A DNA stretch of 64,000 nucleotides from a virus, in IMG/VR virus record IMGVR_UViG_3300016667_000367, positions 1 to 64,000 of that record, one strand, 5' to 3'. Position 1 is the stretch's first letter, and each line of letters starts with the position of its first letter. Below are positions 6,903 to 24,104 of this stretch, piece after piece. Both the position numbers and the translations under genes were made by a program. Under the pieces are notes generated by a model that saw only the letters and a list, made by a program, of their open reading frames with translations, had not been told where the DNA came from and did no database searches.

Positions 6903-7655
6903 ATGAAGCGTCCTGCAAAAATGTCTCGTAGAGAAAAGTCACAACAAGGTCATGATGGAGCTATTGCTAATCGCAAGGCGCACAACTGGTCCGAGCAATA
7001 TGGCATTAACCAAATTAAATTAACAGTCAGTCAAACTGAACTTATGCACAAGATTCAGAATAACACACTGACTTTTGTTGATTCCGTGGCGGGTAGTGGT
7101 AAATCATTAACTGCACTTTATACTTTTGTAAAGGAGTATTTGAGGGACAATACAAAACAACTCATTATTATTCGTACACCAGTTGAAGCCGGTATGGATA
7201 AGATTGGTGCACTTCCTAATGAGTACGAAGCAAAAATTGAACCGCACTTTGCAAGCACTAGGAAGATTCTTGAGGAACTTCTGAGCAGGGGTAAAGTAGA
7301 AACTGACCTAGGACATAGGATTCACTTCAAGATTCCAAACTTTGTTCTTGGTGCAACATTTGATAACTCCTTAATTCTTTTGGATGAAATGCAACAGGTT
7401 CCGCCAAATATCCTAAAGCTACTTCTTGAGCGTATTGGTGTTGATAGTAAGTGCGTTGTCATGGGCGATAGTACTCAACTATATACTGGCACCGACAGCA
7501 AGCGTAATGGTCTTAAGGATGCATTGGGTCGATTCCTAGATACTGATGGTGAGCCAAAATACAACGATGTAGCATTTCATAAATTTGGTATTCAAGATGT
7601 AATGCGTAGCGAAATCGTAAAAACTGTAATCACGGCTTATACTGGTCTTGTATAA
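6903..7655 (+). CDS. phoH: PhoH-like ATPase
   Basis: Walker A VAGSGKS, LLDEMQQ and VVMGDSTQ motifs as in PhoH family. Confidence 0.65.
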   Translation: MKRPAKMSRREKSQQGHDGAIANRKAHNWSEQYGINQIKLTVSQTELMHKIQNNTLTFVDSVAGSGKSLTALYTFVKEYLRDNTKQLIIIRTPVEAGMDKIGALPNEYEAKIEPHFASTRKILEELLSRGKVETDLGHRIHFKIPNFVLGATFDNSLILLDEMQQVPPNILKLLLERIGVDSKCVVMGDSTQLYTGTDSKRNGLKDALGRFLDTDGEPKYNDVAFHKFGIQDVMRSEIVKTVITAYTGLV

Positions 7656-7668
7656 ACAAGAAAATCCG

Positions 7669-7697
7669 TTGACAGTAGGACAGGACTGTAGTAACAT
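7669..7697 (+). promoter_or_regulatory. sigma70-type promoter TTGACA-17-TAACAT for the downstream homing endonuclease
   Basis: ttgacagtaggacaggactgtagtaacat read directly. Confidence 0.45.
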
Positions 7698-7725
7698 ACA
7701 GTCTTGTTCAATCTTAAAGGTACTT

Positions 7726-8514
7726 ATGACCTCAAAAGTAAATATTCTTGGTAAAGTATTTCAATCCAAAAACTACGGAGAGTACATTGTTACTGAGTAT
7801 AAAAGTTGGAGAGAAGTTCACATAATGTTTACAGCAACAGGATTTAAAACTGTAGCTCAATTAAAAGAGATAAGAACCGGAATGGTTAAAGATTATCTCC
7901 TACCTACTATTTGTGGCGTTGGATATCTTGGTATCGGTGATTATAAGTGCCAGCGTATAAACGAATATGGTAAACGCGCAAATACGCCGGAGTATGAAGT
8001 ATGGAATGGAATGTTGAAACGCTGCTATAACAAGGAGTGGAGAGATAAGCAGGGTAGGCAATCATACGAAGGCGTGACCGTTTGTATTGAGTGGCATAAC
8101 TTCCAAAATTTTGCAAAGTGGTTTAACGAAAATAAACCAGAAGGTGATTACGCACTAGACAAGGACTTAAAAATTATTGGAAATAGGCAATACAGTCCTG
8201 AATCATGCACATTTCTACCAGTAAGAGTGGACAGTCTGTTTACTGGAACTATGGATGATCGTGATCTACCAAGAGGTGTTCATTTCTGTAAAAATAAAAA
8301 GAAATACATCGTGCAACTACACAAGGGTGATGTGACTGCAAAAGGTAATCCAAAACAAACATATCTTGGTGCATACACAAGTAAAGATGATGCAATTCGT
8401 GCTTATCGAGAAGCAAAGATTGAGGTGGTTAGTAAAGTTGCAGAGGAATATAAGGATGTTCTTGATCCAGTTGTATATCAGAACTTAAAAACACGGGTTT
8501 TAGAATTTATTTAA
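7726..8514 (+). CDS. free-standing homing endonuclease of the HNH-AP2 type (DKD..GN..YSPEsC nuclease core plus C-terminal AP2 domain), paralog of 30886..32181
   Basis: WNGMLKRCYN...W.NFQNFAKW...LDKDLKIIGNRQYSPESCTF; AP2-like LPRGVHFCKNKKKYIVQ...YLGAYTSKDDAIRAY; start moved to MTSKVN ATG with RBS. Confidence 0.6.
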   Translation: MTSKVNILGKVFQSKNYGEYIVTEYKSWREVHIMFTATGFKTVAQLKEIRTGMVKDYLLPTICGVGYLGIGDYKCQRINEYGKRANTPEYEVWNGMLKRCYNKEWRDKQGRQSYEGVTVCIEWHNFQNFAKWFNENKPEGDYALDKDLKIIGNRQYSPESCTFLPVRVDSLFTGTMDDRDLPRGVHFCKNKKKYIVQLHKGDVTAKGNPKQTYLGAYTSKDDAIRAYREAKIEVVSKVAEEYKDVLDPVVYQNLKTRVLEFI

Positions 8515-8547: not shown

Positions 8548-9264
8548 ATGAAAGCACTAAACCAAAATATCAACAAGTACAAGAACTTCACTAGGATCAA
8601 TCTATCGGATGATGATGATGAAGATAAGGAACTTCAGCATATTCATCTACCTATGTATGAAAGTACTGCTACATCACGCTGCATTAAGATTTACCTTGAT
8701 GAAAATATCAAGCAACCTTCTTACTACAGGAATATGGTTCATGCTCTTGATAATCTTACCGAAGATGACATGATGCATATCAGCATCAATAGTTATGGTG
8801 GTCAACTTGATAGTGCTATTGCTATTATTGGTGCTATGCAACGAACTGACGCTCATGTTCACTGCAGTATTGATGGTATGGCTGCTAGTGCTGCTTCACT
8901 GATTGCTCTAGCATCTCCTTCACTAAGTATTGCTCCTATGGCTAGTATGATGATTCATGCTGCTACATTTGGAACCTTCGGTACTCAGAGTTCTGTTGTA
9001 TCTCATGCTTCATTCATTGATAAAAAGGTGAAAGATATCATGCAAGAAATCTACAAGGACTTTCTGAGCCAGAAGGAACTTGATGAGGTATTCATGGGTG
9101 CTGAGATTTGGCTATCATCCGATCAAATCTTTGAACGCCTTGAGAAACGCTCCGAGATTCAGGAGAAGCGATACCAGAAGGAACAACGAGAAATTGCTAA
9201 GGCTATGAAGGTTCCTCGGAGTAAGGTTAAGAAGGTGGATGAAGAGGTTTATGATATCTCTTAA
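8548..9264 (+). CDS. ClpP-family serine protease-like protein (S14 fold; GMAASAAS Ser and MMIHAA His)
   Basis: ISINSYGGQLDSAIAIIGAMQ...IDGMAASAASLIALAS...MMIHAA resembles ClpP / ClpP-like prohead proteases. Confidence 0.55.
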   Translation: MKALNQNINKYKNFTRINLSDDDDEDKELQHIHLPMYESTATSRCIKIYLDENIKQPSYYRNMVHALDNLTEDDMMHISINSYGGQLDSAIAIIGAMQRTDAHVHCSIDGMAASAASLIALASPSLSIAPMASMMIHAATFGTFGTQSSVVSHASFIDKKVKDIMQEIYKDFLSQKELDEVFMGAEIWLSSDQIFERLEKRSEIQEKRYQKEQREIAKAMKVPRSKVKKVDEEVYDIS

Positions 9265-9330
9265 AATTTATATTTAACGCTGCTTGAATTATCAGTTTCT
9301 ATCGCTAAATTTGCTATTAAAATATCACTA

Positions 9331-9368
9331 GAACCCCTTGGGAGTAATCCCTTGGGGTTTTTCTTTTG
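9331..9368 (+). terminator. rho-independent terminator ending the plus-strand early block
   Basis: ccccttgggagtaatcccttgggg followed by tttttctttt. Confidence 0.45.
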
Positions 9369-9652
9369 TTCTGATTTAACAGCAAAATATGCGATAAATT
9401 CATGCTTACTGCCGCTTTATTCATGCATCTCTTTCTCAAATATCAATTTGAGTTAAGTTTTGATGTCTTCTTGATACCTTTATGATCCAGCAGGATTTGT
9501 TAGTTGTTTGTTAGGTACTTGCTGGGATTGTGAAATTGCTGCAGGATGGAATGTGGGTTTAATCAACCGACCCTACCACCCCATCAATTTTGCTGATTTT
9601 TCTAAAATATCATGGCGCCGGATCGCATAGGACATGCAGCAGGATCGCGCAT

Positions 9653-9684
9653 CTAGTTCCGATAATTCACATTTTCGGAACTAG
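9653..9684. other. perfect 10-bp-stem hairpin (ctagttccga-N12-tcggaactag) inside a GC-rich ORF-free segment
   Basis: read directly. Confidence 0.4.
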
Positions 9685-10004
9685 GGTTTATCCTGCACCA
9701 GGGATTATCGCCGGGCATGCTTCGGGGTTTTCTGGTGGATACCCTATAGGCCCAGCAAGGCGCATAGAACGGCTTCAGGCGGGTTTTCTTGTGCAAGCCT
9801 AGGCTACCCTACTATGCGACATGGAAAATTGATTCTAGGCGCTTTTGGTGCATTCTAGCATCATCCACATTTTACGCGGTGCATGGTGGATGCTTAAAAG
9901 TAAACCCATGAGTAAATTCAAGATCCCCGCCGTACTCGCCAGCACCCCAAAAGATAAACCAAAGTACAAATGAGAATGACTCGCATTTCACCCTTCAGGC
10001 AAAA

Positions 10005-10033
10005 GAAAAACCCCAGGGATAAGCCACGGGGTT
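10005..10033. terminator. bidirectional terminator-like hairpin aaaaacccc-N13-ggggttt
   Basis: read directly. Confidence 0.35.
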
Positions 10034-10168
10034 TCATTGCTCAATCAATCTCTTTGCTTAATCCAATGAATCACGCAAGCTAGCCCGTAACATACGCCAG
10101 CACAAGCCCAGCAATACAGAAGAAAACCAGAGTACAGTTTAACTAGGGAAAACAGAAGCGGCACGTTA

Positions 10169-10414
10169 TTAGCTCCAATCCAGCAGGTTTTTATATGCTG
10201 GACTCATTGTCCCGTTGGTATATGCGGCATATGAGTGCCAGTTCCCATGATCCGGAAAATCCTCTATTTCATAGCCAATGTATCCGGCGCGTTCATTAAT
10301 TACGACAATTTCATGCGCTTTTTTAAACGCTCTTTTCCAATCTAATTTGTCTCCTGATTGATAGTAAAAAACCCTGATTTGTTTCCCATTGTAAAAGACT
10401 GCAAAACATCCCAT
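10169..10414 (-). CDS. hypothetical protein (81 aa) in GC-rich island
   Basis: ORF track; last gene of the island operon. Confidence 0.5.
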   Translation of the reverse strand: MGCFAVFYNGKQIRVFYYQSGDKLDWKRAFKKAHEIVVINERAGYIGYEIEDFPDHGNWHSYAAYTNGTMSPAYKNLLDWS

Positions 10415-10419
10415 TTTAA

Positions 10420-11181
10420 TTACCCCTTAAAGTTAGACTTAGCTGAACCATGCGATACAATTGCAATGGATTTTGCTTTGATACTGGAGCCGCTGCAAAG
10501 CTTGCAAGCCTCGCAGGTTACACGGCGCCCGGCCTCCTCACTAGCTGGGCATAGGATTTCGTTTTTCAACACGGAGCTTGCCCCCTTGTCCTTCCATTCT
10601 TGCACTGGGATAACCCGAAAAGTCCGGTAGCCGTTATTGTGCAGGGTTTGCGCCTGCCTTGCATTATCTGCACTAATCATAAGCTTTGCGGTGTCAATAC
10701 CCGGATATTCCCCTAACTGGTGCGTGTATCCGGTATGTCCCAAAGCTTCGGACAATAAAGCCTCGAATCTTGCACTATAAATAGCCGCCGGGTCGCCATA
10801 GGTGCCGAGGCGAATCATACGCCCCCTGCCGATTTCACGCGCCTGGTCATCGGTCAGGATTGGATATTTGCCCGCCAGGAATGCCCTATAAACTGCGCCG
10901 GCTCCCTGGCCAATGGTGACATAACACGATCGACCATCCGCTAACCCTTTTGTCTTTTCGGGGTTTGCCTTGCCGCGATGCACGCAACGACCACAGATTG
11001 AATAATCCCGGTCTGTCCGATTAGCCGTTATAGGGTCCATGTCAGCCCGCAGGATGTAGGTTTGAACCATGTTCCCGGTCTTGCTGTTAGTGCTTTTGGC
11101 GATTGCGATGACGACAATAGGCGCTCCATCAATACGCGACGGACCCTGATACAGGATGCCGGATTGGATTTTCTTTTTCAT
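10420..11181 (-). CDS. Cys-rich hypothetical protein (253 aa; CGRC ... CEACKLC)
   Basis: ORF track; GC about 52% versus about 38% in flanks; preceded by the conserved leader motif. Confidence 0.55.
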   Translation of the reverse strand: MKKKIQSGILYQGPSRIDGAPIVVIAIAKSTNSKTGNMVQTYILRADMDPITANRTDRDYSICGRCVHRGKANPEKTKGLADGRSCYVTIGQGAGAVYRAFLAGKYPILTDDQAREIGRGRMIRLGTYGDPAAIYSARFEALLSEALGHTGYTHQLGEYPGIDTAKLMISADNARQAQTLHNNGYRTFRVIPVQEWKDKGASSVLKNEILCPASEEAGRRVTCEACKLCSGSSIKAKSIAIVSHGSAKSNFKG

Positions 11182-11190
11182 AATTTACCT

Positions 11191-11220
11191 TTTGGTTTTG
11201 CTGGGCAATATCGCCCCCAA
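11191..11220 (-). promoter_or_regulatory. conserved leader element copy A (GGGGGCGATATTGCCC stem-loop plus AAAACCAAAAGG RBS) just 5' of the ATG
   Basis: aligns with copies at 11624..11652 and 12033..12056. Confidence 0.4.
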
Positions 11221-11261
11221 ATGACCCTATTTAGTAAGATCATTTGAGAGAATACTACATA

Positions 11262-11612
11262 TTAGAATTCCTGATAAACAAAGACATTGGCGCCCTGTTT
11301 ATTAATGTACTCACCTATTATCACTGTATTCTCTTCGAGAAAATCCCTTGCGATATCTGCCAAGTCATCATTTGAATAATCCGATGAATCCTGCAATTTG
11401 TATTGCACAAAGATATCCGCGCAATCATTTTCCACGTAATTGCAGCAATACCCTACGACGTCCAACTCTTCATTGTTTCCTGTCTCTTCGCTCAGGTTTT
11501 CGAGGTAATCAAAAATGATCCTCTGAGCCTTTTTAGAGAAATGATCCGCACGACCCATGTCTTGAAATGCTCGGGCGAACTCATAAAATCCGATAGTTTG
11601 AACGATTGCCAT
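11262..11612 (-). CDS. highly acidic 116-aa protein, candidate DNA-mimic / antirestriction protein (Ocr/ArdA-like; assignment tentative)
   Basis: D/E-rich translation (e.g. DLADIARDFLEENTVIIGEY); GC-rich island context. Confidence 0.5.
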   Translation of the reverse strand: MAIVQTIGFYEFARAFQDMGRADHFSKKAQRIIFDYLENLSEETGNNEELDVVGYCCNYVENDCADIFVQYKLQDSSDYSNDDLADIARDFLEENTVIIGEYINKQGANVFVYQEF

Positions 11613-11623
11613 AATTTCACCTT

Positions 11624-11652
11624 TTGGTTTATCGGGCAGGATTGCCCCCTAT
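11624..11652 (-). promoter_or_regulatory. conserved leader element copy B (GGGGGCAATCCTGCCC stem-loop plus RBS)
   Basis: read directly. Confidence 0.4.
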
Positions 11653-11693
11653 ATGGCACTATTTTCTAATGCCATATAAGAAAATCCTATTTA

Positions 11694-11927
11694 TTATTTG
11701 CTGCCGTACAGTTTTGCGAAATCTCGGATATGTCTATTATTTTCAAAGTCAATCTGTTTTCCAAACCTCCCATTCTGCCAGCGAATCGCAATCGTCCCTG
11801 CTTTTGTGATTCCAAGAAACTGTCCCCGAGACCCAGTTTTACGGCAAGTCAACCATTGCCCAACCTGCAGATCGTACCGCTGCAGATTGCCCAGATCGAT
11901 TTTGATCGTTGCAATATAACGCGCCAT
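11694..11927 (-). CDS. hypothetical protein (77 aa)
   Basis: ORF track; RBS AAGGGGGTGAA before ATG. Confidence 0.5.
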   Translation of the reverse strand: MARYIATIKIDLGNLQRYDLQVGQWLTCRKTGSRGQFLGITKAGTIAIRWQNGRFGKQIDFENNRHIRDFAKLYGSK

Positions 11928-11938
11928 GGTTCACCCCC

Positions 11939-12022
11939 TTATGCGAAAGAAAAAGCCAAGATAAGGCCGAAGACTGCGCCCATGATGGCTGCGCAAAGAT
12001 AGTCAAATGCTGTAGGTTTCAT
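11939..12022 (-). CDS. 27-aa hydrophobic peptide MKPTAFDYLCAAIMGAVFGLILAFSFA (single TM helix)
   Basis: hand-translated; its own copy of the leader motif upstream; stop 1 nt before the next gene's RBS. Confidence 0.35.
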   Translation of the reverse strand: MKPTAFDYLCAAIMGAVFGLILAFSFA

Positions 12023-12032
12023 TGTTTCGCCT

Positions 12033-12056
12033 TTGATTTATCGGGAATATTCCCGG
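12033..12056 (-). promoter_or_regulatory. conserved leader element copy C (CCGGGAATATTCCCG stem-loop plus RBS)
   Basis: read directly. Confidence 0.35.
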
Positions 12057-12651
12057 ACAATCGCCTATTTTTCTAAGCGATTCTCAGAGAATCCTGAGCT
12101 GGTCTCAGGCCAGCGCTTATGCGCCGGGTTTGTGTTGGTGAAAATCAAGTCTTTAGATTTTTAACGATCCACCCCGTACTAGGGGCGATACCCTAGGGGC
12201 TGGGGCTTGCTGCTGTTCGCTGCTGCCTTGGACTCAATTATGCACTAGTTCGATGCCTTGTCTCGGTTTCTCTTAACTATTTTGATTGAAATTTACTATC
12301 GATGCCATAGGTTTTCCCTATCTGTTGGAGCGTCGATTTATACATATGACGCGCCCGCGATATAGCATAAAAAGAAAAACCTAGTAAATCGAAGGGTTAT
12401 TATATAAACCTAAGTCTAAACGAGAATCATTCTCATTTAGCTTTTCTGCAATCCTCCATATCAACCTCTTTACTGAAAACCACCATCAGCAATAAACGCT
12501 ACCTTGAAAAACTCCGAGGGGTCGTGAGTTTTTTAAGAAATTTTAACTTCAACCCCTAGCGGATTTTTGATTTCAATTTGGATTTCCATATTCAGGAAAT
12601 TTCAAATGCTCATGAGTTTTTGAAGATGAAAATTAAATGAGAAAAATAAAA

Positions 12652-12692
12652 ACCACCGAGGATAATCCAAGGTGGTCTTCTTTTTATTTATT
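12652..12692. terminator. bidirectional rho-independent terminator between island and early minus block
   Basis: accaccgagg-ataatcc-aaggtggt flanked by A-run and T-run. Confidence 0.45.
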
Positions 12693-12703
12693 CATCTTTT
12701 TAT

Positions 12704-13027
12704 TTAATCTTCACCATACATATCTTCATCATCCTTGTCTTCCTTCTTCCTGAAAGGTCTTACGGAATGCAATGGACAAACCTCAACCCTGCAATCACTG
12801 ATATCCTCCTTACTGAAGTTACAGCAAGTCAAGCACTTAGCCTTGATGGCTTTACTCAAGCTCTTACCTACAAAGGCATCAGCGATAAGCCTCTTGAGTT
12901 TATCAGGGGAGTACTCAACATAAGCCCTTTGCTTATCAGTAATGCTATCAAGAGCAGTGTTAAGTTTTGCTAATGAAATTTCCTTGTTTTTTGACCTATC
13001 GAGGTTCAGTAAGGGGTTGATAGCCAT
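12704..13027 (-). CDS. hypothetical protein with C-terminal Cys cluster (107 aa)
   Basis: ORF track. Confidence 0.5.
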   Translation of the reverse strand: MAINPLLNLDRSKNKEISLAKLNTALDSITDKQRAYVEYSPDKLKRLIADAFVGKSLSKAIKAKCLTCCNFSKEDISDCRVEVCPLHSVRPFRKKEDKDDEDMYGED

Positions 13028-13116
13028 CTCTTTAGTTCCTTCATTTACGTAATACGGAAGATGCTAGTAAAAATGCTGCTGAGGATTTTACAGCAGCATC
13101 TTAACTTGTTTTCTTC

Positions 13117-13317
13117 CTAGCCTCTACGAATCTCGAAAAGACCTGCATTACTCCTCAATTCATTACCATTCTCTCCAGTAAACAGTGTGTCATTCTCTTC
13201 AATCCAGTACTTAGCCTGAGCAATGCTTGAGAACTTGTTAGCTACCTTACCGGAGCTTTTGAAGACTACGTTGTACATCATACGTTGCTTGACGGTGTTG
13301 CCTTGGTTGTTTTTCAT
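13117..13317 (-). CDS. hypothetical protein (66 aa)
   Basis: ORF track. Confidence 0.45.
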   Translation of the reverse strand: MKNNQGNTVKQRMMYNVVFKSSGKVANKFSSIAQAKYWIEENDTLFTGENGNELRSNAGLFEIRRG

Positions 13318-21971: not shown

Positions 21972-22012
21972 GATTTACCTTTGGTTGTTGTAAGTGAAGT
22001 ATAGCACAGGTT

Positions 22013-22243
22013 TTACTGTTTGCTGGATATCTTAGATATGCACCTGTCAAGTAATTCCCATGCTTCGGTTCCTGACCATGTTTCATCGAAGGCTTCTTGA
22101 ACAATCTTACGGCAGCGTTCTTGCTCAATCTTAACTCCAGCTTGCCAGCCTTCCCATGCCCAGAAAGCCGGTGAACCTGCCTCGTATGGGTTGTCGGTGG
22201 TGATTTCTCCTTCGTTCCACCATGCGTTGAACTCTGGCGTCAT
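22013..22243 (-). CDS. hypothetical small protein (start at MTPEFNAWWNEGE)
   Basis: ORF track trimmed; ATGA overlap with upstream stop. Confidence 0.4.
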   Translation of the reverse strand: MTPEFNAWWNEGEITTDNPYEAGSPAFWAWEGWQAGVKIEQERCRKIVQEAFDETWSGTEAWELLDRCISKISSKQ

Positions 22244-22458
22244 TTGTCGCCCCTTGCTTGGATTGCCTCTACGGCGTACTTCAACCAGCCTTCCGGCCCG
22301 CTGGGCCAGTAGTAGCTGGCCTCGCACGCCTCGATGCAGCGTTTGCGCTCGGCAGCGGCGATCAGGGCGGCAAAGCGTAGAAGCATGTCGTCATTCAAAG
22401 ACCACCCGTCAAACATGCCTGCCTCCCTCGCCATGCGGATGATGTCGTCTCGGGTCAT
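22240..22458 (-). CDS. hypothetical protein (72 aa), GC-rich patch
   Basis: ORF track. Confidence 0.45.
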   Translation of the reverse strand: MTRDDIIRMAREAGMFDGWSLNDDMLLRFAALIAAAERKRCIEACEASYYWPSGPEGWLKYAVEAIQARGDK

Positions 22459-22994
22459 GTGTTCTCCTTGATGCCGTGAGCTGCCTCGATGGCGCGGGCA
22501 AAGTCTTTTGCATACAGCCAGCGAACGCGCAGGTTCTCCACTGTGTCGTGTGGGCAGCTACGCAGTGCGTCGCGCAGTTCCTCATCCGTCAGCGGCTGGC
22601 GAGGTGGCTGCGGGTGGGTGTAGAGCGGAACCTCCCTTCCAGTGCCAGCGTTATAGAACTCAAGCCCGCAGCGAACTCCACCATCATCAACATCCATCCA
22701 CGCCACCGGCTCAACCTGCTGCTCGGCCTCAAGGGCTTGGCGTAGGGTGCCGATAGCGTCATATCCTTTGACGACTCCATCAGCAACACCCTTCAAGCGA
22801 AGCTGCATAGCGTTCAGTAAGCGGAACCTTTCTTCTGCGGAGCCTGGAAGCATGTCTCTGAACTCTTTAACGTATGCTCCGGCCCAAGTCTCTCCATACT
22901 TCTCAGCGTGCTCGCGCATCTGTATCAATCCAGTACGCAACAGCTCCAGCGCCTCCAGCGCCTGCTGTGCGGCTTGTATCAGTTTGTCGCTCAT
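22455..22994 (-). CDS. hypothetical protein (179 aa), founding member of a local paralog family (QAAQQALEALE ... FARAIEAAHGI)
   Basis: ORF track; GC about 60%. Confidence 0.5.
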   Translation of the reverse strand: MSDKLIQAAQQALEALELLRTGLIQMREHAEKYGETWAGAYVKEFRDMLPGSAEERFRLLNAMQLRLKGVADGVVKGYDAIGTLRQALEAEQQVEPVAWMDVDDGGVRCGLEFYNAGTGREVPLYTHPQPPRQPLTDEELRDALRSCPHDTVENLRVRWLYAKDFARAIEAAHGIKENT

Positions 22995-23036
22995 AGTCTG
23001 CTCCTGTGTGTTAGTGTCTATGCAGTTATTATAGCA

Positions 23037-23234
23037 TCACTTGACGGTGCCTACATAGTGCGCAGCCATATACAAGTCTGGCACTGTGTCTGCAGTGTTC
23101 CAACGCAGGTTGTAGTTGCGAGCATAGTTCCGGGCTTCGGCCTCGGTTGCGAAGTAAAGCACTTCGTCTACCTTCTGTCCCCAACCTGCTTCGCTTTCGA
23201 TGATCTCTACCTTGTGCAGTCCGATCTGTGTCAT
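23037..23234 (-). CDS. hypothetical protein (65 aa)
   Basis: ORF track. Confidence 0.45.
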   Translation of the reverse strand: MTQIGLHKVEIIESEAGWGQKVDEVLYFATEAEARNYARNYNLRWNTADTVPDLYMAAHYVGTVK

Positions 23235-23246
23235 TGTGTGCTCCTG

Positions 23247-23585
23247 TTAACTGATACCGTGGGCACGCTCAATGGCGCGGGCGAAGTCAACAAAAGACCC
23301 GCTTTTCCTATCTACAGCAAAAATTATTGACCGAATTTCTACTTCAGACAGTGGATTTCTCTGCGTTACTAATGCCTTAGCAGCTTCCTGCGCTTGAAAC
23401 AATGCGCTGGTTAGCGCCTTCACCTGTGCTTGGCACGCTTGCAACGGCGTTGGCTCTGGCGGCTTCAGATTGCCTTCAGAATCGAAGCGTTCCGGCTGGC
23501 ATGTAGGGCATATCTGCCAATGCTCGCAGTTGCAATTCCTCATTTGTGCTCCTTGCTTGTTACGTTGTGCTTTGCGGCCATCCAC
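23247..23585 (-). CDS. hypothetical protein (112 aa; GTG start), paralog (C-terminal FARAIERAHGIS)
   Basis: ORF track. Confidence 0.45.
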   Translation of the reverse strand: MDGRKAQRNKQGAQMRNCNCEHWQICPTCQPERFDSEGNLKPPEPTPLQACQAQVKALTSALFQAQEAAKALVTQRNPLSEVEIRSIIFAVDRKSGSFVDFARAIERAHGIS

Positions 23586-23982
23586 GCCCCTAAACCAAGC
23601 GTGTATTGGTTGACGTATTGGTCATATGTAGTATCTGATGGGGTCGGAATTTCTCTGACAATATCGCCATCACCAATGAACCACGCATCGAACCATGTCT
23701 TAAATGCCGCAAATTCTTCGCTGACATTCAGCGGCTGCTGCGCTGGTTGATGCGGTCGTTCATATAGCGCAACCGCGCCTTCGTCGGTTTCGGCGCAATC
23801 AGTCCAGCCAAACGGTTCAGCTTTGAAATAGCCAAACGGCTCATCCTGCTGCTCTGCCTCAAGGGTTTGGCGCAGGGCGGTGATGGCTTTCTCGCATTTG
23901 CGCTCAACAAGGCTTGGGCAAATTCAATGGCTTGCTCCAGAGCCTTAATCGCCTGCTGGGCGGCTTGTCGTAGTGTTACCAC
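23586..23982 (-). pseudogene. frameshifted and internally deleted paralog of 22455..22994 (N-terminus in one frame from GTG 23982, C-terminal LEAEQQDEP...YERPHQPAQQPL in the -1 frame)
   Basis: two-frame hand translation; DNA similarity to 22690..22750. Confidence 0.4.
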
Positions 23983-24104
23983 AATGCATCCTCCATTTCA
24001 TTACGTCGCTGTTCTTGCATCTTCTTGAGTAGCTTCTGCATCTCAGCAGGAGTCAACTGCTTGAATGGGTTGGTTGGCCAACCTTGAGTGTACGGATACT
24101 TCAT
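23976..24104 (-). CDS. small protein (42 aa), first gene of the minus early block
   Basis: RBS aaaggagta then ATG. Confidence 0.35.
   Translation of the reverse strand: MKYPYTQGWPTNPFKQLTPAEMQKLLKKMQEQRRNEMEDALW

Follow-up and report, generated by a model that had tools for sequence, protein, structure and literature searches.

Three intergenic leaders in a 64,000-nucleotide stretch of viral DNA (IMG/VR record IMGVR_UViG_3300016667_000367, positions 1 to 64,000; hereafter, the window) are copies of a genuine conserved structured RNA element, which is previously undescribed and belongs to a globally distributed group of freshwater phages. The confidence attached to the existence of this element is much higher than that attached to a mechanism; the element probably marks the points at which a long message is cut or stabilized. 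The copies in the window and in related phages share two alternative RNA folds, a constant position between an upstream stop codon and a downstream ribosome-binding site, and a location at the joints between genes that have been exchanged.

Leaders and operon of the window

The window derives from the genome of a tailed phage and has tRNA genes and a primase/helicase similar to those of myophages of Pseudaeromonas and Acinetobacter and of Pseudomonas phage vB_PsaM_M1. A minus-strand cluster of ORFs, encoding products of 27, 77, 116, 253 and 81 aa in that order, is flanked by two ORF-free stretches, has a GC content somewhat above that of the rest of the window and is adjoined by ORFs for a ClpP-like protease and an HNH endonuclease (Table 1). 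As no internal promoters or terminators were found in the cluster, we infer that it is transcribed as one polycistronic message, with the ORF-free stretch upstream of the first gene being the probable promoter and 5′ leader region. An exact-protein look-up of the 253-aa product returned nothing on record.

Each leader spans ∼80 to 90 nt and consists of an 11-nt box (TAGGATTCTCT and variants), a 12-bp hairpin (hairpin 1), a second hairpin (hairpin 2), a GATAA motif, a Shine-Dalgarno sequence (SD) and the ATG. This larger unit was revealed by alignment of whole intergenic regions combined with folding. The stems of hairpin 1 differ among all three copies (W1, W2 and W3, in order of transcription) with retention of complementarity, while TTA...TAG frames the loop. 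The predicted folds of the window leaders had z scores of −3.9 (W1), −4.8 (W2) and −5.0 (W3).

Table 1. Features of the leader-bearing operon and its surroundings in the window
Feature	Position	Strand	Remarks
HNH endonuclease ORF	7648-8514		
ClpP-like protease gene	8548-9264		
81-aa ORF	10169-10414	−	Last gene; translationally coupled; without a leader
253-aa ORF	10420-11181	−	DUF7227/GP88 superfamily; terminal slot of the operon
W3 tail	11179-11202	−	AGCAAAACC; SD AAAGG (11192-11188); ATG (11181-11179)
W3 hairpin 2	11203-11216	−	GGGC GATATT GCCC
W3 hairpin 1	11218-11246	−	CAAATGATCTTA / CTAAA / TAGGGTCATTTG
W3 box	11247-11257	−	TAGTATTCTCT; begins 4 nt past the stop of the 116-aa ORF
116-aa ORF	11262-11612	−	Without relatives among the compared clusters
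W2 tail	11610-11633	−	GATAAACC; SD AAAGG (11624-11620); ATG (11612-11610)
W2 hairpin 2	11634-11647	−	GGGC AATCCT GCCC
W2 hairpin 1	11650-11678	−	TATATGGCATTA / GAAAA / TAGTGCCATATA
W2 box	11679-11689	−	TAGGATTTTCT; begins 4 nt past the stop of the 77-aa ORF
77-aa ORF	11694-11927	−	Family A (phrog_21585); kept in all relatives; stop at 11696-11694
27-aa ORF	11939-12022	−	Hydrophobic product; coupled to the next gene
W1 tail	12020-12041	−	ATAAATC; SD AAAGG (12034-12030); ATG (12022-12020)
W1 hairpin 2	12042-12055	−	CGGG AATATT CCCG; the hairpin of the original prediction
W1 hairpin 1	12056-12085	−	GAGAATCGCTTA / GAAAAA / TAGGCGATTGTC; columns 21-31/46-57 of the 24-copy alignment
W1 box	12086-12096	−	CAGGATTCTCT; first leader of the operon; no ORF upstream
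Conserved ORF-free stretch	12100-12400	−	Upstream of W1; 74% column identity with the 71.5-kb contig L040; no Rfam match

The original prediction had described a near-identical stem-loop leader, at a fixed distance from the SD, in front of three unrelated ORFs. All three of the quoted leader strings were found immediately upstream of the respective minus-strand ATGs, and the ORFs behind them were indeed mutually unrelated. Coincidence, which the prediction had discounted, was also contradicted by a degenerate pattern that had 2 matches versus 0.10 expected and by a motif scan that detected no further copy in the 64 kb. The proposed search for the motif, carried out over the 64 kb, yielded exactly three copies, all in one operon and on one strand, and a profile derived exclusively from 21 copies of other phages ranked these three sites at the top of the window (E values of 2e-5, 4e-5 and 8e-3, with the next match at 0.19). 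The repeat is real, but "near-identical" was an overstatement; identity over the whole element was 66% between W2 and W3 and 45% to 49% between W1 and the others. Similarly, a fixed spacing between hairpin and ATG holds in the window (21, 21 and 19 nt for the start codons at 11181, 11612 and 12022, respectively) but not in the family, where it ranges from 9 to 30 nt. As to its extent, the predicted leader contained hairpin 2, while the repeat starts ∼40 nt further upstream with the box and the larger hairpin 1. The larger hairpin, the box abutting the stop codon and an alternative long helix, all of which had been missed, are the most informative features.

Distribution in related phages and exchange of flanking genes

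Megablast and blastn comparisons of the region with phage records gave no match, and an exact-pattern scan of viral contigs with the window's own consensus gave 0 matches. Relatives were reached only via the neighboring ClpP gene, which led to Limnohabitans phage DC31 (L039), a 71.5-kb viral contig (L040) and 16 metagenome loci. These relatives have a common layout of the ClpP gene, an ORF-free gap and the cluster on the opposite strand. The closest annotated relative of the ClpP neighborhood was DC31, a freshwater phage of 76.2 kb. This phage infects Limnohabitans, a freshwater betaproteobacterium, and is described by its authors as a novel lineage (PMC12195039). In L040, a leader is followed by a 28-aa hydrophobic ORF in a place equivalent to that of the 27-aa ORF of the window.

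A sequence profile search recovered 31 copies of the element. A covariance model (R1) and a pattern scan applied to viral contigs brought the collection to 48 confident copies on the sense strand, of which 44 were distinct, at 26 loci of DC31-like phages. Each locus had 1 to 5 copies, all within the operon next to the ClpP-like gene and all on the coding strand. Pattern matches in Helicobacter, a Legionella MAG and Paenibacillus were unconfirmed by the covariance model and were attributed to chance. Covariance model searches did not detect the element in four related loci (L049, L051, L053 and L055) despite the same gene order, indicating that the element is dispensable. It was likewise absent, by this model, from the GC-rich phages encoding the closest homologues of the 253-aa protein. 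The leaders of the GC-rich DUF7227 genes share a TAGGnTTCTC box with the element; a homology between the two was considered and rejected because the covariance model had no match in these loci, and the resemblance was taken to be coincidental or promoter related.

Known RNA families did not account for the element. A search of the window against Rfam at the gathering threshold detected tRNAs only; in positions 9000 to 13200, at E values of up to 5, there were nine weak matches, none of them over a leader; and in four relatives, at E values of up to 1, only tRNAs and two chance-level miRNA matches were obtained. A description of the element was not found in the literature on promoter early stem-loop (PeSL) elements, Pseudomonas-phage ONT-cappable-seq, DC31, Pakpunavirus-like phages or Limnohabitans phages.

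The clusters of the relatives have a recurrent slot order consisting of family A, then B or F, optional genes and a terminal gene of 225 to 257 aa. The terminal gene is a GP88/DUF7227 superfamily member in every case, but at least four lineages mutually lacking BLAST similarity occupy this slot. Comparison of DC31 with locus L041 illustrates the exchange of genes around a leader: the two terminal leaders share ∼88% identity, yet the proteins encoded behind them are unrelated (E = 12) and the DNA ahead of them is unalignable. A gene-cassette boundary was one of the options listed in the original prediction and was strengthened by a comparison of 33 between-genome leader pairs having at least 78% identity. 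Only 1 of these pairs had homologous genes on both sides, 11 had them on one side and 21 on neither; the flank families were assigned to simple ORF calls with a BLAST cutoff of 1e-4. The flank homology of these pairs indicates that the leaders are conserved joints in a shuffled operon. Homogenization of leaders within a genome was considered and rejected, as the nearest neighbor was in another genome for 13 of 18 copies; leader identity was 0.66 within a genome and 0.64 for the same slot between genomes.

Two mutually exclusive RNA folds

Covariation was assessed in a MAFFT alignment of 24 copies (A3). Hairpins 1 and 2 were 97.9% paired in this alignment, with double-sided changes in 10 of the 16 pairs and a covariation score of 0.492 versus 0.149 for shuffled alignments and ≤0.071 when the partners were slid by 1 to 3 columns. 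For the 44 distinct copies (A5), pairing was 99.3% and 12 of the 16 pairs exhibited double-sided changes, values that are inflated because this alignment was fitted to the two-hairpin structure. All four Watson-Crick types were present at pair 61-70 of hairpin 2 (CG in 9 copies, AU in 8, GC in 5 and UA in 2).

A second pairing was unexpected. The 5′ half and the loop of hairpin 2 can base pair with the box, forming a helix that stacks under hairpin 1; as this box helix uses nucleotides of hairpin 2, the two folds are mutually exclusive. Column pair 13-66 of the box helix was UA in 15 copies, AU in 5, CG in 1 and GC in 1, and in 22 of the 24 copies the partner of column 17 was either column 61 or column 62. 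In W2, the box sequence AGGATT is perfectly complementary to an unusual hairpin 2 loop, AATCCT, with a compensatory G-C pair at columns 13-66. The box helix alone was 95.0% paired compared to 90.5% after shuffling and had 8 double-change cells compared to 2.3, neither value being reached in any of 500 shuffles. The count of double-sided pairs was less discriminating: 2 versus 1.4 in A3, equalled by 187 of 500 shuffles, and 4 versus 2.5 in A5, equalled by 61 of 500, the A5 numbers again being inflated by the structure-fitted alignment. Taken alone, the box helix is moderately supported, with modest covariation arising mainly from ∼5 to 6 independent events at one column pair.

With the box paired, the element forms a single hairpin of 22 to 27 bp (median, 24 bp) in 41 of the 44 distinct copies. 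This long helix has a median of 2 unpaired stem nucleotides (range, 1 to 7), an apical loop of 3 to 7 nt and a median of 5 G·U pairs, and in 34 of the 44 copies there is a bulge in the 3′ strand 7 to 8 bp from the base. In W3, hairpin 1 and the box helix together make a 23-bp helix with one bulge. W1 and a variant subtype form a long helix of only 17 to 18 bp; that of W1 is weak, with 17 bp and a box-helix probability of 0.01. The two folds are nearly isoenergetic, the two-hairpin fold costing 1.5 ± 1.6 kcal/mol more with the box masked. When the box is free, the long fold is predicted to dominate, with a pair probability of 0.83 versus 0.07 for hairpin 2. The many G·U pairs and the strand asymmetry of the element (covariance model scores of ∼84 bits for the sense strand versus ∼31 bits for the antisense strand) indicate that the structure works as sense RNA and not as DNA.

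The position of the element was also constrained. For 20 of 24 copies, the last nucleotide of the upstream stop codon falls within a narrow interval that runs from 4 nt ahead of the box to 3 nt into it, and in 9 of these the TAG or TAA of the box is itself the upstream stop codon; two further copies are preceded by short ORFs with the same kind of ending. Since the upstream stop codon is in or at the box, a terminating ribosome would cover the box. Predicted accessibility of the SD and AUG was equal in the two folds (0.59 versus 0.60; p = 0.51), and hence a switch that masks the SD was rejected.

Candidate roles of the element

The explanation that we favor, tentatively and with a confidence somewhat short of even, is that the leaders are RNase III-type intercistronic processing or stability signals with a lower stem opened by ribosomes, which double as homology patches for gene exchange. 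An RNase III-type signal is favored because published signals have the same form, namely, a bulged intercistronic helix of roughly two A-form turns; the pointer to RNase III itself comes solely from the length and position of the helix. The original prediction had included an RNase site among its options, and this option has gained from the finding of the bulged helix between cistrons, at which cleavage would occur. RNase III substrates have helices of ∼22 bp, equivalent to two A-form turns, in which a bulge directs cleavage to a single strand and leaves stabilizing 3′ hairpins (PMC3867540). The early precursor of phage T7 contains five RNase III signals, whose processing results in separation of the cistrons and stabilization by 3′ hairpins (PMC3867540). 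The element resembles T7 signals R0.3 to R1.3 in that related hairpins are present between the cistrons of one phage transcript and in that a helix of approximately two A-form turns is broken by a bulge or internal loop. There is, however, no sequence relationship to the T7 signals, and in the phages described here the helix contains the upstream stop codon, is in competition with another hairpin and would be cleaved only putatively. The hosts also differ, being E. coli for T7 and, for the present group, a freshwater betaproteobacterium, as exemplified by the Limnohabitans host of DC31.

From the structures, their positions and the shuffling of the flanking genes, we infer cleavage and a ribosome-driven switch as follows. 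The element would act in cis as a structured intercistronic RNA of ∼80 nt within the polycistronic transcript and would adopt one of two mutually exclusive folds. In the first (fold L), the box would pair with hairpin 2, at the 5′ half and loop of the latter, and stack under hairpin 1, giving the 22- to 27-bp helix with its conserved 3′-strand bulge, which may be read by a host RNase III-type activity with resultant separation or stabilization of the cistrons. A ribosome terminating on the upstream gene would sit on the box and melt the lower stem, allowing hairpin 2 to form and so generating the second fold (fold S), in which hairpin 1 is followed by the small hairpin 2 just upstream of the GATAA-SD-ATG segment. 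After cleavage or occlusion, hairpin 2 may offer the ribosome-binding site in the same surroundings irrespective of the gene that follows. As the element is self-contained and conserved, it could also serve as a homology patch at which neighboring genes are exchanged between related phages. Were cleavage to occur at the bulge, the 5′ arm of hairpin 2 would be lost, a variant in which the role of this hairpin is unexplained.

A passive role, in which the element is an uncleaved insulator or stabilizer whose folded gap blocks 3′ exonucleases and Rho loading and keeps the SD in a constant open context, so that translation of whatever gene follows the joint is predictable, is a somewhat unlikely alternative. 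The equal accessibility of the SD and AUG whichever fold was imposed and the presence of the same leader before unrelated genes would both be expected of such an insulator. Neither the length of the helix and fixed position of its bulge nor the covariation of two mutually exclusive pairings is explained by a passive gap. A strong form of this favored reading, in which the element is a translation-sensing switch, is unlikely: given the location of the upstream stop codon at the base of the long helix, each terminating ribosome would convert an RNase III-sensitive duplex to the two-hairpin form, such that upstream translation would set processing or decay at the boundary, and the same module would be the joint for gene swapping with expression left undisturbed (an "expression socket").

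Two further systems bear on these readings. In phage lambda, the cIII mRNA has alternative structures that are modulated by RNase III, and the switch between them alters access to the ribosome-binding site. The present element is similar in having two exclusive mRNA folds near a start site, one of which is proposed to be read by RNase III, but differs in that accessibility is predicted to be unchanged. REP and BIME sequences are intercistronic palindromes that stabilize upstream mRNA. The leaders resemble these in being intercistronic hairpins directly after a stop codon; REPs, however, are dispersed genome-wide in both orientations, in contrast to the three copies confined to one operon and one strand of the 64 kb.

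The original prediction had also raised the idea of a shared translational operator. According to this alternative, a phage RNA-binding protein would bind either the apex of hairpin 1, with its conserved U·G and U-A pairs, or the AAUAUU loop in hairpin 2 and thereby coregulate the genes that follow the leaders. All copies are in one operon, the U·G and U-A pairs atop hairpin 1 are near-invariant (24 of 24 copies in A3 and 41 of 44 in A5), and the AATATT center and GATAA are conserved (A3), features that are consistent with protein recognition. The apical part of hairpin 1 is, however, variable in both length and sequence, being entirely different in L065 and L047, and the loop of hairpin 2 varies and does so in concert with the box, so that its conservation is explained by pairing. 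There was no RNA-binding domain among the cluster proteins, and the predicted accessibility of the SD and AUG did not differ between the folds. An operator is neither favored nor refuted by these results and is considered improbable. A similarity of the GAAAA loop to lambda boxB was dismissed, as this loop occurs only in W1 and W2 and the apical loops of the family vary. A DNA operator with GATAAT/ATTATC half-sites was also discarded; these are present in AT-rich relatives but absent from the window copies, and it is the structure that is conserved instead.

The PeSLs of T4-like phages consist of a consensus σ70 promoter with an AT-rich UP region and a terminating stem-loop with G/C tracts (PMC2839356, PMC4122927). 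A cassette of this type, in which each leader has its own early promoter (with TAnnAT as the −10 element) and a terminating stem-loop, is very doubtful for the present leaders, in spite of several similarities. Like PeSLs, the leaders are repeated intergenic motifs of ∼90 to 100 bp that end in an SD and ATG, are flanked by small genes of unknown function and mark points of gene insertion, deletion and replacement between related phages; a repeat of ∼90 bp flanking shuffled ORFs is what a PeSL would look like, and the box reads T-A-n-n-A-T in 22 to 24 of 24 copies. The expected promoter and terminator were looked for and not found. Matches to a −35 element at a spacing of 16 to 18 bp averaged 2.57 of 6 positions, compared to 2.58 at control TAnnAT sites, and there was no TGn; the real promoters of leader-less relatives are different (TGgTATAAT), and no promoter scoring ≥10 was present on the cluster strand. 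The TAG or TAA of the box is, moreover, simply the upstream stop codon in the 9 copies mentioned above. A run of at least 5 T residues within the 8 nt after the hairpin was present in 0 of 44 copies for hairpin 1 and 2 of 44 for hairpin 2, and no terminator-like sites were found inside the leaders. PeSLs, in addition, act on DNA and transcription, whereas this element exhibits RNA-type covariation and many G·U pairs.

Highly improbable is a DNA-level element, namely, a cruciform or hairpin for an attC-like recombinase or for replication with an incidental RNA structure: the long imperfect inverted repeat with one extrahelical base and the location at junctions of swapped genes fit this idea, but the G·U pairs (median of 5 per helix) would be C·A mismatches on the other strand, the covariance model scores are strongly strand asymmetric, the attC cores R″ (RYYYAAC) and R′ (GTTRRRY) were found in none of the 44 copies, and the element has a fixed place with respect to the stop codon and SD.

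If the reading of the leaders as RNase III-type signals and exchange joints is right, these phages harbor a new structured RNA motif with 48 copies and covariation in three helices, and the reading is directly testable because Limnohabitans phage DC31, which belongs to the group, is in culture. Operon processing by RNase III, for which T7 is the paradigm, would be extended to an unrelated lineage, with the addition of an alternative fold that embeds a stop codon and could couple processing to translation. A compact element that provides an identical ribosome-binding site before unrelated genes is also the type of insulator that synthetic biologists design by hand. The translation-sensing switch, if true, would be a portable "expression socket" of a kind undescribed for phage operons. 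The element would, furthermore, be an RNA-level counterpart of the PeSL concept, in which conserved regulatory joints drive the modular shuffling of genes.

The terminal gene and the leader-associated ORFs

The terminal slot of the operon, the minus-strand gene cluster beside the ClpP-like gene, was occupied every time by a protein of the GP88/DUF7227 superfamily, yet the lineages involved lacked pairwise BLAST similarity to one another. Proteins encoded by uncultured GC-rich phages were ∼60% identical to the window protein, whose family, one of unknown function, numbers >7,000 database members. A conserved upstream promoter-like motif is common to the GC-rich phages carrying the DUF7227 homologue (L002 to L035; e.g., L005, 1600-1700), with the -35 element sitting within a small hairpin, CTTGTnnnnnnnACAAG, followed at 17 bp by TGcTAGGGT, then by a GC hairpin and then by the SD.

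Tiny hydrophobic ORFs were translationally coupled to the following gene in two phages, the window and L040 (a 71.5-kb viral contig). A variant subtype of the leader element, the folded RNA between operon genes, was also observed, in which a small extra hairpin, CTGATAATATCAG, takes the place of the box and the long helix is only ∼18 bp.

Features of the cluster and its surroundings in the window and relative loci
Feature	Position	Remark
Terminal gene, GP88/DUF7227 superfamily	window 10420-11181; L039 (Limnohabitans phage DC31) 8491-9249; L040 9529-10221; L043 around 8291	
Tiny hydrophobic ORFs	window 11939-12022; L040 about 10846-10932	27 and 28 aa; immediately 3′ of leader
Variant leader	L039 9792; L041 5822; L043 9435; L052 3472; L056 9012	5′ of conserved 71-aa ORF
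ORF-free upstream region	window 12100-12400; L040 11240-11520; L039 10644-11574	minus strand (window)
Terminator-like hairpin pair	window 9350-9368 and 10000-10018	flanks ClpP-cluster gap; inverted copies, 95% complementary
HNH homing-endonuclease-like ORF	window 7648-8514	TTG start; inserted immediately 5′ of ClpP-like gene

Noncoding regions on either side of the cluster

Upstream of the cluster, in a region devoid of ORFs, the window and L040 have a conserved stretch of ∼250 nt in common (column identity of 74%), with blocks such as CGATAGnAAATTTCAAT, TAGTGCATAATTGA, and AATCTAAAGACT, and this stretch had no Rfam match. The equivalent region of DC31 contains six 20-nt iterons and three DnaA-box-like CCTGTGGATAAC repeats and looks like an origin. 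No excess of DnaA boxes was found in the window.

An ORF-free gap of ∼630 nt (9350-10018) separates ClpP from the cluster in the window, and parts of its interior seemed, as judged by eye, to be conserved with L040. This gap could be a noncoding RNA gene or another cis element.

The HNH ORF and a second GC-rich patch in the window

No annotated counterpart of the HNH ORF was present in the syntenic stretch of DC31 because the neighbouring CDSs of that phage are all labelled hypothetical. A second GC-rich patch at 22000-24000 (GC of 0.51 to 0.56 versus about 0.39) contained no leader elements and carries small ORFs on the minus strand, two of which (179 and 112 aa) share a C-terminal end, DFARAIEaAHGI. 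This patch looks like a module that was acquired separately.
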